This document shows, piece after piece, positions 3,222 to 59,203 of a stretch of DNA of 64,000 bases. The number at the start of each line of letters is the position of its first letter. Within the stretch, counting starts at the first letter, position 1. The stretch comes from a phage. Position numbers and translations under genes: made by a program. The notes beneath the pieces are model-generated. The model did not search any database, was not told where the DNA came from, and worked only from the letters and a program-made list of their open reading frames with translations. The stretch is from the sequence record PZ019085.1; one strand, given 5' to 3'.

Positions 3222-4169
3222 ATGTACAATATCAAATGCTTGTCCCAAGAAGAACAGTTAGAAGCTTACGGCCTTGTTGAATCAGGCAAATGGACTCGTA
3301 AAGAAATTGCCGATTACTTCGACATTTCAACAGATACTCTTCGTAAGATTGTTAAGAATTTTAAAGCTGAAGGCGTTGTCCCTGAAGCAAACGATGCCTC
3401 TTATGTAATCGAAGAAGTTCCAGAAAATAATGAACCTATTATTACAGGTCATCGTCCAGAAATCGTATGGAACGCGTCATCTAAATTTATTTCAATCATT
3501 GAAGGACGCGTAGCATACAATGCGACTCCATCAAGTCATGCAAATTTTGAAGAAATTAAAGCTAATCTGGTCGCAGGAAACCTTAGTAAAGCTGTCGAAC
3601 TTATTAACATCAAGAAAGCTATTAGTAAGTTTGTTGACGGTAATGTTACTATTGAAGGTGGTAGTTTATTTTATCAAGGTATAGAAATTCGTTCAGGACT
3701 GGTTAATCGTATTATTGATTCCATGGAAAAAGGTGAAGACTTTAAATTCTATCTGCCGTTCCTTGAAAACCTGTTAGAAAACCCAAGCGAAAAAGCTGTA
3801 CAACGTTTATTCGACTTCTTGGTTGCAAATGATATTGAAATCACTGAAGATGGGTATTTCTATGCATGGAAAGTAGTTCGTAAGGACTATTTAGACTGCT
3901 ATAGTGGCACATTTGATAACTCGCCTGGTAAAGTTGTTTCAATGCCTCGTACTCGAGTTAACGACGATGATACACAAACTTGTTCCCGTGGTCTACACGT
4001 TTGTGCTAAATCATATATTCGTTACTTCGGTTCAAGCTCAGATAAAGTTGTTAAGGTTAAAGTTCATCCACGTGATGTTGTATCCATCCCAGTTGACTAT
4101 GGTGATGCTAAGATGCGTACTTGTCGTTATGAAGTAATTTCAGACGTTACTGAATTATTTGCAGAATAA
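3222..4169 (+). CDS. rIIB: rIIB protein
   Basis: 315 aa (T4 312); position after rIIA; followed by strong terminator. Confidence 0.88.
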   Translation: MYNIKCLSQEEQLEAYGLVESGKWTRKEIADYFDISTDTLRKIVKNFKAEGVVPEANDASYVIEEVPENNEPIITGHRPEIVWNASSKFISIIEGRVAYNATPSSHANFEEIKANLVAGNLSKAVELINIKKAISKFVDGNVTIEGGSLFYQGIEIRSGLVNRIIDSMEKGEDFKFYLPFLENLLENPSEKAVQRLFDFLVANDIEITEDGYFYAWKVVRKDYLDCYSGTFDNSPGKVVSMPRTRVNDDDTQTCSRGLHVCAKSYIRYFGSSSDKVVKVKVHPRDVVSIPVDYGDAKMRTCRYEVISDVTELFAE

Positions 4170-10936: not shown

Positions 10937-11599
10937 TTATTTAGCCCTTCCTAGTATTCGGATCGCTTGGTTGCATATAGCCGCTAAGCGATCTTCCTCA
11001 AGTATATTATTATTCCCCTTATACCAATACATCGCCACAGTTCCAGCATAGATGTTATCCAAATTAAAGTATGGACAACTATACATATAAGAAAGTTCGG
11101 CAGTCTTAGATTTTGTAGGCAAAAATGCAAATTCTGATTTAGATGAGAAATGACGGCCACTTAAATGAATTATATATTCATCGGCCGTTTTATCCACTGG
11201 GAATCCGCCAAGGGACTTTTCAGAAATTGTGCTAGGTAGTTTGCCTTCATAAGCTATAAGGTCGACAAAATAATTTAAGTTTTTAGGTCTGAAAGAATAC
11301 ACAGCACTAAAATCTGCACCAGATGAGATATGAACTATTTGCAGTTGTTCTAGAGCCGCAGATTCAAAACGTAAAGCTCGTTCTTTTTGGATTATTTCAG
11401 TATAAGTATCATACTTAGCTCTTACATAATAATCCAGCAAAATACTTCCTTTGTACCATATTAGTGCCATTAGGAACAAAAGAATAATTACCGCTACTCG
11501 GGACATTAAAACCTTTCCAGTAGCGTTATCTTTGAAAATACGATCTAGCAACCCAAATAGAATATCACTAAGCGAAAATGATACTTTTGGTGTTGCCAT
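10937..11599 (-). CDS. t: Holin T
   Basis: 220 aa (T4 218); N-terminal TM segment; position after gene 38. Confidence 0.9.
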   Translation of the reverse strand: MATPKVSFSLSDILFGLLDRIFKDNATGKVLMSRVAVIILLFLMALIWYKGSILLDYYVRAKYDTYTEIIQKERALRFESAALEQLQIVHISSGADFSAVYSFRPKNLNYFVDLIAYEGKLPSTISEKSLGGFPVDKTADEYIIHLSGRHFSSKSEFAFLPTKSKTAELSYMYSCPYFNLDNIYAGTVAMYWYKGNNNILEEDRLAAICNQAIRILGRAK

Positions 11600-11608
11600 A
11601 ATACCTCC

Positions 11609-12160
11609 TTACTTAAAGATATTTATAATCGCTTTGACAATAGATTTGTTTTCAAGGTCAGGGAATTTAGGGAATTCACAGCCAAGATGTTCATGTTTTT
11701 CTAAAAGGGCAAAGAATTTTTTGAGCTCTTTAAATTTTCGTTTTTCTTCTCTATTAGCAACCTCTGCGTCAATAAGAGAACTTAAAACACTGAATAATTT
11801 ATAGAGTTCATGAATTTTCTTATCACGTTGAACTACGCGTTTATATGCTTCATCTTCCTTCCACCCGTCGCCGGTCCAAATGTCAAATTCACCAGGTTCT
11901 TCTGTAGTAACATTTTGAAGAGCACCTGGGGTGTCAATAACAATTTTTTGCTTATCATAAGTCCATACTGTTTTTCCACGATGGTCTTCAACATATACCC
12001 ATTCTTGCTCGCGTTCGTCAAATATAACAGCATAGCCTTCTTTAGGGTCTAAAGGTTTTTTTGGTGTTGAATGAGCCGGAAATCCTACGCCTTTTAATGG
12101 TTTATAATTTTCTTCTTTGTAAAATTCTTTAGTGTCAAAATAATAATGATAGAGTTTCAT
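11609..12160 (-). CDS. 38: Long tail fibre assembly chaperone gp38 (T4-type)
   Basis: 183 aa (T4 183); downstream of gene 37. Confidence 0.85.
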   Translation of the reverse strand: MKLYHYYFDTKEFYKEENYKPLKGVGFPAHSTPKKPLDPKEGYAVIFDEREQEWVYVEDHRGKTVWTYDKQKIVIDTPGALQNVTTEEPGEFDIWTGDGWKEDEAYKRVVQRDKKIHELYKLFSVLSSLIDAEVANREEKRKFKELKKFFALLEKHEHLGCEFPKFPDLENKSIVKAIINIFK

Positions 12161-12190: not shown

Positions 12191-15100
12191 TTATGCTAAA
12201 CGAACGATATAGTTAAAAGCAACGTTTTTAACAGTGTTTTCTGTATTTCCTGTGGCATTTACAGTTATTGTATGTCCATGGGAACCAATTGCAACAGTAT
12301 GAGAATGAGCACCAATACCTACAGTATGAGAATGAGCACCAATACCTACCGTATGAGCATGGTTACCTGTAGTGCTTGTAGTACCAGACCAACTATGAGT
12401 ATGGTTACCTTCTGTTGACGACTTTGCAATATATTGGCTTGTGCCAGGCACGACACCGTTGCTTAGGCCAAAACCAACAACCTGAGACCCACTAATTAGA
12501 GTAGCCCCATTAGGAAATATCCCGGTCGGTTGGTTACTAGGTCCTCTTGGGCCTGTCTGTGAGTGCTGGTGGTTACCAGCGGCACTAGTATTACCACTCA
12601 CTGTATGGTTATGGTTACCAGTGGTATTACTGGTCTTAGTACCATAATCAAAGCTTGAAGTCGTTTTGCTACCGTAATCAAAACTTGACGTATTTTTAGT
12701 ACCCAAATCTGTGCTTGATGCACTTGCACTATGGCTATGTGACTTAACACCGTCTGCTTCTGTACTTAATACAGCACGCCCAGATGGTTTACCCTTGATA
12801 GTTTGACCACGCATATCAGGCAGTGCGCCGGAAGGATACACAGCAGCTAACTTAGGATACAAGTCAGCATCAAATGTTTGCCCTTCCATTATGGCATAAC
12901 CTTCAGGAGGTGTATCAGTAGGCCAAGGAATCGGAGCACCAATTGGATAACTCGACACAATATCCGTCTTAAGGTTATTTATTGTGGTATTCAAGTTAGC
13001 AAAATTACCAGAACCACCAGTAATATTACCATCAGTTCCTAGTTGTGCATCTCCGACTTTAAGAGGTTTACTGACTTCCACGAAATTATCGCTTATAACA
13101 AGACCGTGTCCATACGATTGGCTATAAAGTGATAAATCATTTCCAGAACCACCAAGACCAACATACCAAGATCTAGTTCCAGCTTTAGAACCCTGCAAAT
13201 AATTAGCAGAAGAAGATGAAGGAGAATCTAGAGTAAGCGCTGCATTACGTTCATTAATAGTTACTGGACATATCATTTTAATAGTTTTAAGACTATTACT
13301 TACTTGTAATAATCCTGTACCGGATCCAGAATCCCCCAAATGAACATCATGCGACATTTTAACTGTGCCGGTGTTCAGTTCTATTATCAATGGTCTAAGA
13401 TTACTTATACCGCCTGATTCTCCAGCATCTTTAGGAGTAGGGATAATATAAAGATTACTTTCTGAACGACGGAAAATAGCCCCGTATTCAGCATTCCAAA
13501 TTCTTAATGCATCAGCTGTTCCACCAATTTTAACTTGTCCAGTAATAGAAGAACCACCTTGTAAAAACAAGCCGTTCTTCATTGTAACATTGCCACCAAA
13601 AGAACCTGTACCGGAGGCACTTATATTACCAAGGCCTACGATATGGCCTGTTTCGACAGTTCCGTTAAATTTAAAGTTAACCGGACCTACTGTTTCACCA
13701 GAAGCCGGGTTGGTACGTTGAGCATAAAAATAATAACCTTGTGAATCTGATACTTCAAATACAGTTTCTCTATTACCCTTTTCAGCGTTAAATGAGTTAC
13801 CCCATGCTTTAATGGTTACAGTATTTTTATTCTGACCATTACGAGTACCTGCATCCCAGTTAATGGGTTTTGTCCCGTCAACACCTGTAGGCGCTTTAAA
13901 TGACAAAGCATTGGTATTGTCATCACCTGATAAAAATAACCCAGTACGCATTGAAATACGTTGGGTTGAGTCAAATGTACCATCTGCTCTAATAGCAACC
14001 TTATTGGAACTGGTTTTAATATCTAAAATGCCAGGCTCAACAAGAAGCCCATCACCCATACTAACGGACATACGGCCAGTGCCACGGAAATAGTGATACA
14101 TCTTGGCATTGCTACTATAGCCAATATGAGTCTGACCGTCACCGTTATTATTACCATCAACATCGGTACGCGCAGTAAACATTGCTTGGTTGTTATTTGG
14201 GTAATCCCAAGTAGAACCAGAATCTCGACTATAACCAACCATCAATTTTTTAGTACTGTTAATACCGTTATTAAGAATAGTGCCGGCAGAAATACCATTC
14301 GCAACTAAATCGATAACCCCGTCACGAACCCATTTAATACCGGTATCATTGTCACCAATTGCAATACCTTTACCAAACGAAACCAATGGATAACGTCCTT
14401 GGTCACCAACATCAGCAAGACCTATACCTATCGAATTAGCAACAGACATACGCCCATCTGTGGTATAAGACCATTGATAAACTTCAGCATTACGTCCCGT
14501 CCAATACGAAATATTCTGTGGTTTACCTGAACGAGCATCAGCAACTTCATGGAAAATAGCAGAAGAAACATGTCCGCGGAATTTACGAAGGTAGTTTATA
14601 CCATTAGTATCCAAATCTGTTTCGGTTGGAGTATACTGCCAAGTCGGTAGTGAAACTAAATCATATGCAGTATCAATATTAGTGTCCCAAGATTTAGTGC
14701 TCACATTGATATTTTTGGTAATAACTTTAGGACCAATTAAAGAACCAGCTTTAGTTTCAATATTACTTTGAGTAACTAAATATCCATTAGATACTAATAA
14801 ACTTCCGGAATCAACTTGAAAATTACCGTTTCGATTAAAAGTCCAGTATTTTGAAGTCCCGGTTTCATCAATATAATGGAATTTAAAACTACCTTCGTTT
14901 ACTAATGTACCAGCAGAAAAAGTTCCATCTTTATAGCGTTGTTTAATCAGTGGATGGTATTCTGAAACAGAAGTAGTTGAACTTAAATCTGTAAAGATAG
15001 GGGCTTTATTCGAATGTTGGTTAGCCCAAGCGCCATTTCCAGTGGTTTTAGGTAAAAATTCAATGTATTTTCCTGCATAAACAAACTGATTTCCATTGAG

Positions 15101-15325
15101 ATTATATGTGCCGTTTTGTAAATAATCACCAGTTTGAGTTACATTACCGTTAATATCCCCACCCTTAGCAAAGCCTAGGCTAATAATATTACCGAGGTCA
15201 TCTTTAGTAAAAAGAGTTCGATCTTTTAAGTTTATCGCTAATTCGCCTTCGGCTAATTGTGCTGCAGTAGGATTAACTCCTGCTACTTTGCTTCTTTTAA
15301 ATTGTATCTGTTTTAATGTAGCCAT
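12191..15325 (-). CDS. 37: Long tail fibre distal subunit gp37 (receptor-binding tip with HxH repeats)
   Basis: 1044 aa; C-terminal HxH repeats (GIGAHSHTV) and …NYIVRLA end as in T4 gp37. Confidence 0.9.
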
Positions 15326-58072: not shown

Positions 58073-59203
58073 ATGGCTTTTACAGTTGATATAACTCCTA
58101 AAACACCTACTGGAGTTATAGATGAGACTAAGCAGTTTACTGCTACTCCCAGTGGTGAAACTGGAGGCGGAACTATTACATATGCTTGGGCTGTAGATGA
58201 TGTTCCACAAGATGGAGCTGAAGCAACTTTTAGTTATGTACTAAAAGGACCTGCAGGTCAAAAGACTATTAAAGTAGTTGCAACAAATACAGTTCCAGAA
58301 GCTGAAGCTGAAACAGCAGAAATTACTACGACTATCACGGTTAAAAATAAAACTCAGACAACTACCTTAGCTGTAACTCCTAATAGCCCTGCTGCTGGAG
58401 TAATTGGAACCCCAGTTCAATTTACTGCCGCCTTAGCTTCTCAACCATCAGGTGCATCTGCTACGTATCAGTGGTATGTAGATGGTTCTCCTGTGAGCGA
58501 AGCAACTAGTGCTACATTCAATTACACTCCTACTACAAGCGGAGTTAAAAAAATCAAGTGTGTAGCGCAAGTAACAGCAACAGATTATGACGCAAAAACA
58601 GTTACTTCTAATGAAGTATCATTGACCGTTAATAAGAAGACAATGAATCCACAGGTTACACTGACTCCTCCTTCTATTAACGTTCAGCAAGATGCTTCGG
58701 CTACATTTACTGCTAATGTTACTGGTGCACCTGACGCAGCACAAATTACTTACTCGTGGAAGAAAGATTCTTCTCCTGTAGAAGGGTCAACTAATGTATA
58801 TACTGTTGATACCTCATCTATTGGAAGTCAAACTATTGAAGTTACTGCAACTATTACTGCAACTGATTACGATAGCAAAACTATTACAGCAGAAGGTCAA
58901 GTCCAGGTAACTGATAAAGTTGCTCCAGAACCAGAAGGTGAACTACCTTATGTTCATCCTCTTCCACATCGTACTTCAGCTTACATCTGGTGCGGATGGT
59001 GGGTTATGGATGAAATCCAAAAAATGACTGAAGAAGGTAAAGATTGGAAAACTGAAGATCCAGATAGTAAATACTACTTGCATCGTTACACTCTTCAGAA
59101 GATGATGAAAGACTATCCGGAAGTTGATGTTCAAGAATCACGTAATGGATACATCATCCATAAAACTGCTTTGGAAACTGGTATCATCTATACATATCCA
59201 TAA
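58073..59203 (+). CDS. hoc: Highly immunogenic outer capsid protein Hoc (Ig-like domains)
   Basis: 376 aa (T4 376); repeated Ig-like segments. Confidence 0.85.
   Translation: MAFTVDITPKTPTGVIDETKQFTATPSGETGGGTITYAWAVDDVPQDGAEATFSYVLKGPAGQKTIKVVATNTVPEAEAETAEITTTITVKNKTQTTTLAVTPNSPAAGVIGTPVQFTAALASQPSGASATYQWYVDGSPVSEATSATFNYTPTTSGVKKIKCVAQVTATDYDAKTVTSNEVSLTVNKKTMNPQVTLTPPSINVQQDASATFTANVTGAPDAAQITYSWKKDSSPVEGSTNVYTVDTSSIGSQTIEVTATITATDYDSKTITAEGQVQVTDKVAPEPEGELPYVHPLPHRTSAYIWCGWWVMDEIQKMTEEGKDWKTEDPDSKYYLHRYTLQKMMKDYPEVDVQESRNGYIIHKTALETGIIYTYP

Follow-up and report, generated by a model that had tools for sequence, protein, structure and literature searches.

An exact 27-bp tandem repeat close to the 3' end of a T4-type long tail fibre gene raises the question whether a unit of the fibre has recently been added, or whether two existing units have become identical. 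The sequence AGTATGAGAATGAGCACCAATACCTAC is present twice in exact tandem, at positions 12296-12322 and 12323-12349 of the window, i.e. the whole stretch of 64,000 nucleotides of phage DNA that was analysed, and direct comparison of the two copies gives 27/27 identity. Tandem Repeats Finder delimits the array at 12294-12361 (period 27, 2.5 copies, 95% matches, score 122), and neither of the other two tandem arrays in the 64-kb window scores as high. The number of exact 27-nt tandem repeats to be expected by chance in the window is 64000 × 4^-27, or ∼4e-12, and the repeat is therefore not a chance occurrence. On the minus strand it encodes VGIGAHSHT twice, in frame, as residues 993-1001 and 1002-1010 of the 1044-residue gp37. 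The exact duplication at 12296-12349 and its in-frame translation (residues 993-1010), both described in the initial annotation, are thereby confirmed as real features of the sequence. A single diverged third copy had also been described; such a copy exists, but there are in fact two, one on either side of the exact pair: 12350-12376 (STTGNHAHT, 15/27) and 12269-12295 (VAIGSHGHT, 18/27). The array thus consists of four 9-residue units, each with an HxH motif.

The identification of the gene as a T4-type gp37 holds. Its open reading frame contains the Pfam domains Collar, gp37_trimer and Gp34_trimer, and matches PHROG 1699 ('long tail fiber protein distal subunit') with an E-value of 4e-243. 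A phmmer comparison aligns its last 279 residues with the T4 gp37 tip (PDB entry 2xgf, chain A; E 2.1e-88; query residues 24-302 to chain residues 2-242). Pfam PF03335 ('Phage tail fibre repeat') is matched with 25.2 bits (cut-off 20), in six stretches within the last 189 residues. The genes flanking gp37 are gp36, a gp38-type chaperone and holin T. The 183-residue chaperone is recognized by Pfam Caudo_TAP (E 2.6e-5) and by PHROG 105 ('tail fiber assembly', E 9e-50), and its counterpart in relatives is annotated likewise. The downstream gene is a Tfa/gp38-type chaperone and not an adhesin of the T2 gp38 type, and the adhesin lies within gp37 itself. The gene, its neighbour and the elements of the C-terminal domain are, in window coordinates:

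12191-15325, minus strand: gp37, long tail fibre distal subunit, 1044 residues plus stop (open reading frame, Pfam, PHROG, PDB)
11609-12160, minus strand: gp38-type tail fibre assembly chaperone, 183 residues, directly downstream of gp37
12797-12940, minus strand: collar (knob) domain, residues 796-843 (Pfam PF07484, E 2e-11)
12731-12739, minus strand: HxH motif 1 (H863-S-H865), collar end of the outgoing strand, aligned with T4 H883/H885
12695-12715, minus strand: His-free 'DLG' unit (STDLGTK), outgoing strand, conserved in homologues
12665-12694, minus strand: FDYG unit 1, 10 residues, outgoing strand, absent from T4 (gap against 2xgf)
12635-12664, minus strand: FDYG unit 2, 10 residues, outgoing strand, 22/30 nt matching FDYG unit 1
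12563-12613, minus strand: HxH motifs 2 and 3 (HNH 905-907 and HQH 919-921), 14 residues apart, outgoing strand, distal half of the needle
12404-12562, minus strand: predicted head (receptor-contacting) domain, residues 922-974, between HxH motifs 3 and 4
12392-12403, minus strand: HxH motif 4 (HTHS, residues 975-978), first on the returning strand
12350-12376, minus strand: unit D0 (STTGNHAHT), HxH motif 5, returning strand, 15/27 nt against D1
12323-12349, minus strand: unit D1 (VGIGAHSHT), HxH motif 6, returning strand, first exact copy
12296-12322, minus strand: unit D2 (VGIGAHSHT), HxH motif 7, returning strand, second exact copy
12269-12295, minus strand: unit D3 (VAIGSHGHT), HxH motif 8, nearest the collar, 18/27 nt against D2
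12194-12268, minus strand: conserved C-terminal tail, 25 residues, almost unchanged in T4 2xgf and throughout the homologues

The eight HxH motifs (at residues 863, 905, 919, 975, 989, 998, 1007 and 1016) flank the head, three preceding it and five following it, as is characteristic of a T4-type tip. The predicted head is the most variable part of the domain and differs among alleles, for instance between the APCEc01 type and that of the window. With 53 residues between HxH motifs 3 and 4 it is larger than, and different from, the head of T4, and its alignment with the region of T4 that holds the tip subdomain 932-959 (PMC9603124) is poor. As judged from the alignment with T4, the exact pair is located outside this head, in the returning strand of the shaft, one unit away from the collar end. 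The initial annotation had placed the repeat in the receptor-binding tip, a position not supported by the alignment, in which the head comprises residues 922-974 and the repeat residues 993-1010.

Otherwise the tip of T4 gp37 shows the same order of elements: a collar, HxH motif 1, a DLG/FDYG stretch, two HxH motifs spaced by 14 residues, a head, and a returning series of HxH motifs. The two proteins also share the T4-like C-terminal end ...NTVKN(V/I)AFNYIVRLA, and both genes are followed by a gp38-type chaperone. With respect to 2xgf the shaft contains two insertions and no other indels, of 10 residues (one FDYG unit) and of 9 residues (one VGIGAHxHT unit). Counting HxH motifs by alignment with T4 and relatives, a check proposed in the initial annotation, yields eight here versus seven in T4. 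The T4 needle is ∼150 Å long (PMC3004832), with roughly 46-48 residues per pass, and the shaft of the window protein would accordingly be ∼3 nm longer.

In T4 gp37 the chain runs from the knob to the tip and then back (PMC9603124). If, as in the T4 structural work, each chain passes from collar to head and returns, the shaft of the trimer would be a six-stranded bundle. A six-stranded needle barrel has been described, with the suggestion that longer needles carry more HxH motifs (PMC12609058). The T4 needle binds seven irons (PMC6957217). The assignment of the repeat to the metal-coordinating HxH series of the T4 needle agrees with these reports, the metal being iron (PMC6957217, PMC12609058). 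On the axis of the fibre, a single iron ion would be coordinated by each HxH motif jointly with its equivalents in the other two chains, and the eight motifs would provide eight iron sites per fibre, compared to seven in T4. The additional site would come from the second VGIGAHxHT unit, whose counterpart on the outgoing strand appears to be the second 10-residue His-free unit, TSSFDYGxK, such that the two together would form one added 'layer' of the shaft. From the covariation of the sequences and the T4 topology we infer both this eighth iron site and a physical pairing of the FDYG units with the VGIGAHxHT units. An AlphaFold2 model of the last 265 residues, computed for the monomer of what is expected to be an intertwined, metal-bound trimer, and from an alignment of 28 sequences, is of poor quality, with a mean pLDDT of 50.9 and a pTM of 0.20.

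The covariation was observed in 210 distinct homologous domains, in which the spacing between HxH motifs 1 and 2 equals 12 + 10n, n counting the 9-residue steps with which the returning strand ends. The domains are distributed over n=1 (1), n=2 (81), n=3 (115, plus 2 with a spacing of 41), n=4 (5), n=5 (1) and n=6 (2); the class of the window, n=3, is the most common in the sample (115/210). Between the outgoing and the returning strand the unit numbers, which range from 1 to 6, agree one to one in ∼208 of the 210 domains (Spearman correlation 0.95, counts that are not independent events because the homologues are phylogenetically related). The 14-residue steps of the distal half likewise correspond. 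This one-to-one correspondence contradicts the slippage-driven, free variation in length that the initial annotation had put forward. The copy number presumably remains fixed because a shaft with strands of unequal length would not fold, from which we infer selection against mismatched strand lengths. A more detailed rule pairing units by type (DLG opposite VALGTH, FDY opposite VAIGAH) fits P0039, fails in P0016 and was dropped. Within the DLG unit, residues D94, L95 and G96 are invariant in homologue alignment A2.

The number of units is conserved among T-even relatives. Two VGIGAHxHx units are present in all 13 T-even relatives that were read unit by unit, with units D0-D3 at the same spacings. 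A search of deposited phages with a 250-nt query yielded 196 records, 150 of them with a query coverage of at least 80%, and in all 60 of the matches listed the query and record spans are equal. The alignment of T4 begins no earlier than query base 107, and T4 thus has one unit fewer. The only length variant found is a metagenomic contig, L003, contig 000020 of metagenome 3300030021, which has exactly one 27-nt unit fewer than all its relatives. It also breaks the strand-matching rule, as a single doubtful exception among ∼210 domains; whether its short allele is real is uncertain, and it may derive from a chimeric assembly. Moreover, the two units have mutually diverged in most relatives: of the 29 distinct three-step arrays, 25 have 13-23 of the 27 nt in common between D1 and D2, GADS24 has 25/27, JN02 has 26/27, and only the window and vB_EQ1/MRostami-2023e have 27/27. 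A slippage duplication would be recognized by copy numbers that differ among close relatives and by a second copy that has no diverged orthologue in them; instead, copy numbers agree and both D1 and D2 are present in the relatives. A recent gain of a copy, as initially proposed, is therefore not supported by the relatives, all 13 of which carry two units diverged from one another (13-26/27 nt). The same repeat number in all relatives had been named in advance as the mark of an ancestral rather than a recent repeat, and this is the situation encountered. On sequence grounds, the state with two units on each strand is old and widespread among T-even gp37 alleles. What survives of the original proposal is that some repeat-mediated process acts at D1 and D2, as indicated by their homogenization and by one shorter contig of uncertain reality.

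Taken as a whole, it is very probable that the exact repeat consists of two old His-box units of the shaft that were recently homogenized, and that no copy was newly added. Only the nucleotide identity of D1 and D2 would then be recent, and not the presence of two units. The cause would be gene conversion between D1 and D2, or a contraction and re-expansion by unequal crossover, in the allele lineage common to GADS24, JN02 and vB_EQ1. The distribution of variants among these alleles is consistent with such a process. The first codon of the unit is GTT in both copies of vB_EQ1 and MRostami-2023e and GTA in both copies of the window, each pair being 27/27 identical. Copies that are alike within a genome, and private variants that are present in both of them, form the pattern of concerted evolution, which these sequences appear to follow. 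GADS24 and JN02 have the same D1 sequence as the window. In UGJNEcP1 and APCEc01 D1 is different and encodes VGIGAHTHS, and D2 is the unit whose sequence is shared with the window. GADS24 is the nearest relative in the phage collection (97.2% over 12 kb); over the last 390 nt it differs from the window at four positions, two of which are in D2. The 78-nt repeat region has no 100% match in the phage collection, in which the window genome is absent, and its best match, JN02, has one mismatch. A scan of genome contigs yielded seven loci only.

The identity of the two units could also have arisen by in-register recombination between two gp37 alleles in a mixed infection, with D1 and the upstream sequence coming from one parent and D2 and the downstream sequence from the other, the two units not having interacted in this lineage. 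A GADS24-like allele could have supplied D1, and a UGJNEcP1-like allele D2, since the respective units are identical. The gene is a mosaic, in that no record covers the whole of it at high identity and the identity to GADS24 collapses upstream of ∼13037. Conserved motifs of adhesin genes, furthermore, are reported to act as crossover points (Tetart et al. 1998, J Mol Biol 282:543, summarised in PMC3157838). Such an exchange nevertheless only moves the question, because a D1 that matches the D2 of other alleles requires a prior D2-to-D1 conversion or a re-duplication, and the GTT codon in both copies of vB_EQ1 and MRostami-2023e is left unexplained. As the origin of the exact identity it is improbable.

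Recent replication slippage, which would have added a new 9-residue unit to the receptor-binding tip, with variation in length that may alter its geometry or the host range, is considerably less probable still. The identity of the copies at all 27 positions would fit, as would contig L003 with its one missing unit. There is also a precedent: in laboratory mutants, duplications within the T4 gp37 adhesin domain (the specificity region) reportedly expand the host range (Tetart et al. 1996, J Mol Biol 258:726). The rearrangements of that type are likewise mediated by repeats or motifs and concern the same C-terminal region of gp37. Unlike in those mutants, however, the duplicated segment at the present locus does not include the head, of which there is a single one (residues 922-974), and the repeat is a 9-residue unit of the shaft, the number of which is fixed in nature. 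The conserved copy number (13/13 relatives read unit by unit, equal spans in the 60 listed matches, at least 80% coverage in 150/196 records) already goes most of the way to refuting the slippage reading, which is further opposed by the diverged orthologues of D1 and D2, by the matched strands in ∼208/210 domains, and by the partner FDYG unit on the other strand, itself diverged (22/30 nt). That the exactness of the repeat, or the second copy itself, is an artefact of assembly or polishing is hardly credible: the discordant L003 does show that metagenome assemblies can mis-join at the repeat, but the second copy is found in all 13 T-even relatives read unit by unit and in the equal spans of the listed matches, it is demanded by the frame as well as by its FDYG partner, an exact pair occurs in two other deposited genomes, and 54 bp fit within any ordinary sequencing read.

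As two homogenized shaft units, the repeat represents biology that is already known, namely the textbook His-box element of T4-type and lambdoid fibre tips (Pfam PF03335). This family covers the His-box (GxHxH) motifs known from T-even and lambdoid tail fibre genes, and units D0-D3 are examples of it. The homologues carry the same precomputed PF03335 match; nothing essential distinguishes the present units from this family, except that two of them are identical in DNA sequence in this allele. The side tail fibres of lambdoid and other enterobacterial prophages show 50-77% identity over the last 222 residues, contain the same units and obey the same strand-matching rule, with 1 to 6 layers. They differ in having short, unrelated N-terminal shafts and other heads, and often have two layers, occasionally four to six. 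According to the published description, the needles of both the long and the short tail fibres of Bas63, a Felixounavirus and thus of a different genus, have the same plan of collar, six-stranded needle and head, with 6-7 di-histidine motifs (PMC12609058).

A more far-reaching interpretation would be that a quantised modular shaft, with near-identical units as crossover substrate, constitutes a built-in system for diversifying fibre length, as opposed to mere homogenization under purifying selection. We regard this as unlikely, though a little less so than the slippage reading. If it were true, the length of the shaft would change by whole layers only, via matched gains in two stretches of the gene, and near-identical adjacent units would be a standing substrate for frequent gain and loss by unequal crossover. 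A population might then keep producing variants with mismatched shafts, of which L003 would be a hint, and some of these might assemble and show a changed reach or host range.

For the fibres with matched strands, the agreement in unit numbers over 1 to 6 layers means that the shaft length and the predicted iron load, which ranges over 4-10 HxH motifs per chain, can be read from the sequence. Because the matching is one to one, designs that add or remove a His-box unit should alter the partner unit too. Similarly, since adjacent units evolve in concert, exact DNA repeats at this position are not to be read as recent duplications. Strand matching and concerted evolution may in these ways help the engineering or the annotation of tail fibres.

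The strongest tandem array of the entire 64-kb window lies at 12294-12361 (period 27, 2.5 copies, Tandem Repeats Finder score 122) and contains the exact 27-bp tandem pair reported in the initial annotation. By chance, 64 kb would be expected to contain of the order of 1e-11 exact 27-nt tandem repeats. A diverged third copy had also been reported; a diverged unit is indeed present, but there are two of them, one on either side of the pair. Two further tandem repeats in the window are weak, at 4125-4165 (period 20-21, 2 copies) and 58842-58870 (period 12, 2.3 copies), and no tRNA genes were found across the 64 kb. The repeat is in frame within gp37, and the relevant features are as follows.

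12296-12322 and 12323-12349: two exact tandem copies of the 27-nt unit AGTATGAGAATGAGCACCAATACCTAC, 0 mismatches
12350-12376: diverged flanking unit D0, 15/27 nt match
12269-12295: diverged flanking unit D3, 18/27 nt match
12191..15325, minus strand: gp37 ORF, 1044 aa
15334..15999: gp36, neighbour of gp37
11609..12160: gp38-type assembly chaperone, 183 aa, neighbour of gp37
10937..11599: holin T, in the gp37 neighbourhood

The 1044-aa ORF matches the Pfam families Collar, gp37_trimer and Gp34_trimer, the PHROG 'long tail fiber protein distal subunit' (E 4e-243) and the crystallised T4 gp37 tip (PDB 2xgf, E 2.1e-88), which bears out its earlier assignment as a T4-type gp37. The surrounding gene order is the T4 arrangement, with the adhesin carried by gp37 itself, and the genome is that of a Mosigvirus-like T-even phage, the closest deposited genome being GADS24 (97.2% over 12 kb). 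No deposited record was found to span the entire gp37 at high identity. Within gp37 (~13037-13340, minus strand), the identity to GADS24, otherwise the closest allele, falls abruptly upstream of ~13037, from 27 mismatches in 850 nt downstream to 168 in ~300 nt (ungapped) upstream, and this position looks like a mosaic boundary.

In T4 gp37, each chain starts at the knob, reaches the tip and returns, and its two ends both lie at the knob (PMC9603124); because each chain passes to the tip and returns, the gp37-type needle is a six-stranded barrel (PMC12609058). The HxH motifs of T4 gp37 bind seven irons (PMC6957217), and residues 932-959 form the receptor-contacting tip subdomain (PMC9603124). 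The window protein contains eight HxH motifs, three before and five after a 53-aa variable segment (aa 922-974) that corresponds to the head in the alignment with 2xgf. As previously proposed, the repeat encodes VGIGAHSHT twice in frame and belongs to the metal-binding HxH motifs; the units D1 (aa 993-1001) and D2 (aa 1002-1010) lie on the returning, head-to-collar strand, flanked by D0 (STTGNHAHT) and D3 (VAIGSHGHT). Its placement in the receptor-binding tip is unsupported, as alignment and T4 topology put D1 and D2 in the half of the shaft nearer the collar, farther from the receptor than the rest of the needle. 'Receptor-binding tip' is apt only loosely, as a name for the whole crystallised fragment.

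Outside the head, the window protein differs from T4 2xgf by exactly two indels, both extra in the window protein: 10 aa in the outgoing, collar-to-head strand and 9 aa (one VGIGAHSHT) in the returning strand. The additional His box thus comes with a counterpart on the outgoing strand. Compared with T4, the shaft is predicted to have one layer and one iron site more (eight per fibre), and would be ~3 nm longer, based on a needle of ~150 Å in which each pass takes some 46-48 residues. The outgoing strand holds another tandem pair, of diverged 30-nt units (12635-12694, minus strand; 22/30 nt alike), where T4 carries a single unit of this type.

Two quantities were measured for each homologous domain: the spacing between the collar-end HxH and the next outgoing-strand HxH, and n, the count of 9-aa steps with which the returning strand ends. 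The sample started from 120 proteins of a word-indexed search; an exhaustive HMMER search added 146 cluster representatives, and IMG/VR loci, phage records and T4 were also included. The outgoing spacing equals 12 + 10n in 210 distinct domains, from phage and prophage fibres down to ~50% identity, and correlates with n (Spearman 0.95), the counts not being independent events as the homologues share kinship. By n, the distinct domains number 1 (n=1), 81 (n=2), 115 plus 2 with spacing 41 (n=3), 5 (n=4), 1 (n=5) and 2 (n=6). Two apparent exceptions are counting artefacts, one caused by a His-to-Tyr change (P0042) and one lacking a second outgoing motif (P0241). Strand matching extends to the 14-aa HxH steps in the distal half, with (0,0) in 110 domains, (1,1) in 96 and (2,2) in 1, plus four cases of 14 versus 15. 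Chains carry 4 to 10 HxH motifs in total, and the eight-motif state is common, as it occurs in 39/211 distinct domains. In five prophage or viral-contig homologues (P0039, P0117, L060, L070 and P0016) the matched layers number 4 to 6, one example being six DLG/FDY units that face six VAIGxHxHT units, and the homologue P0251 combines a single 9-aa layer with two 14-aa layers per strand; thus, both shaft halves vary by whole layers.

Among the homologues, a 2.2-kb contig of a Firmicute assembly (L090, Sulfoacidibacillus thermotolerans contig69) matches the last 56 aa of the fibre at 86% and is probably a contamination. Four E. coli proteins (P0011, P0106, P0111 and P0112, one of them named 'terminase large subunit family protein') combine tail-fibre C-terminal domains with precomputed Pfam hits to terminase (PF05876) or ClpP (PF00574), and resemble either fused prophage genes or misannotations.

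The same four 9-aa units and two His-free FDYG units are present in each of the 13 T-even phages whose arrays were read one unit at a time (UGJNEcP1, GADS24, G2469, JK42, slur14, mar007P3, C6, APCEc01, JN02, MRostami-2023e, vB_EQ1, TH54 and the IMG/VR copy of a 170.8-kb phage). A 250-nt array-spanning query matched 196 phage records, 150 of them at ≥80% coverage, and query and record spans were equal in 60/60 among the matches listed. The alignment to T4 records begins only at base 107, as expected if T4 has one unit fewer. The repeat number is fixed among these relatives, which leaves the proposed recent duplication unsupported; nor is slippage-driven length variation supported. Overall, the initial annotation holds for the gene, the frame and the metal-binding motif, and not for 'recent duplication', 'tip' or 'length variation'. 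The sole homologue with unmatched strand unit numbers is the metagenomic contig L003 (IMGVR_UViG_3300030021_000020, locus 1501-2037), with two FDYG units and one VGIGAHTHT only, spanning 540 nt versus 567 nt in every phage record covering that whole query. It is TH54-like (98.4%) upstream of the unit and window-like downstream, and falls short by exactly 27 nt where the two parts meet; it represents either a true product of unequal crossover or a chimeric assembly that joins two strains occurring together.

In 25 of 29 distinct three-step DNA arrays D1 and D2 share 13-23 of 27 nt (mode 21); the identity is 25/27 in GADS24, 26/27 in JN02, and 27/27 in the window and in vB_EQ1/MRostami-2023e. 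D2 of the window is that of UGJNEcP1 and APCEc01, in which D1 encodes VGIGAHTHS, and D1 of the window is that of GADS24 and JN02. In the simplest history, D2 would have overwritten D1 in a common ancestor of the GADS24, JN02 and window alleles. The first codon of both copies is GTT in vB_EQ1 and MRostami-2023e and GTA in the window; such a private change common to both copies has the signature of homogenisation, and the GTT pair would need a minimum of one additional event. Over the last 390 nt, just 4 positions distinguish the window from GADS24, 2 of them inside D2. An in-register crossover between two alleles could also have produced the identical pair and would suffice for the window genome alone, but it presupposes an earlier conversion. 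Homogenisation of D1 by D2 could have proceeded by gene conversion, or by unequal crossover followed by re-expansion. The 30-nt outgoing-strand pair may occasionally be homogenised too, since its identity in relatives (20/30 to 29/30) reaches 29/30.

The D units belong to the curated Pfam repeat PF03335, which the T-even literature calls 'His boxes'. Small adhesin-domain duplications reportedly widen the T4 host range, according to a 1996 study (Tetart et al.). Recombination at conserved adhesin motifs is described in PMC3157838, and the idea of HxH number scaling with needle length has been raised for phage Bas63 (PMC12609058). The repeat and its copy number are therefore known biology. No explicit statement of one-to-one strand matching, or of concerted evolution of adjacent His-box units, was found in the literature searched; both follow naturally from the needle structure. 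The matched counts suggest that the shaft lengthens in whole layers, and a change in a single strand would leave the two passes unequal.
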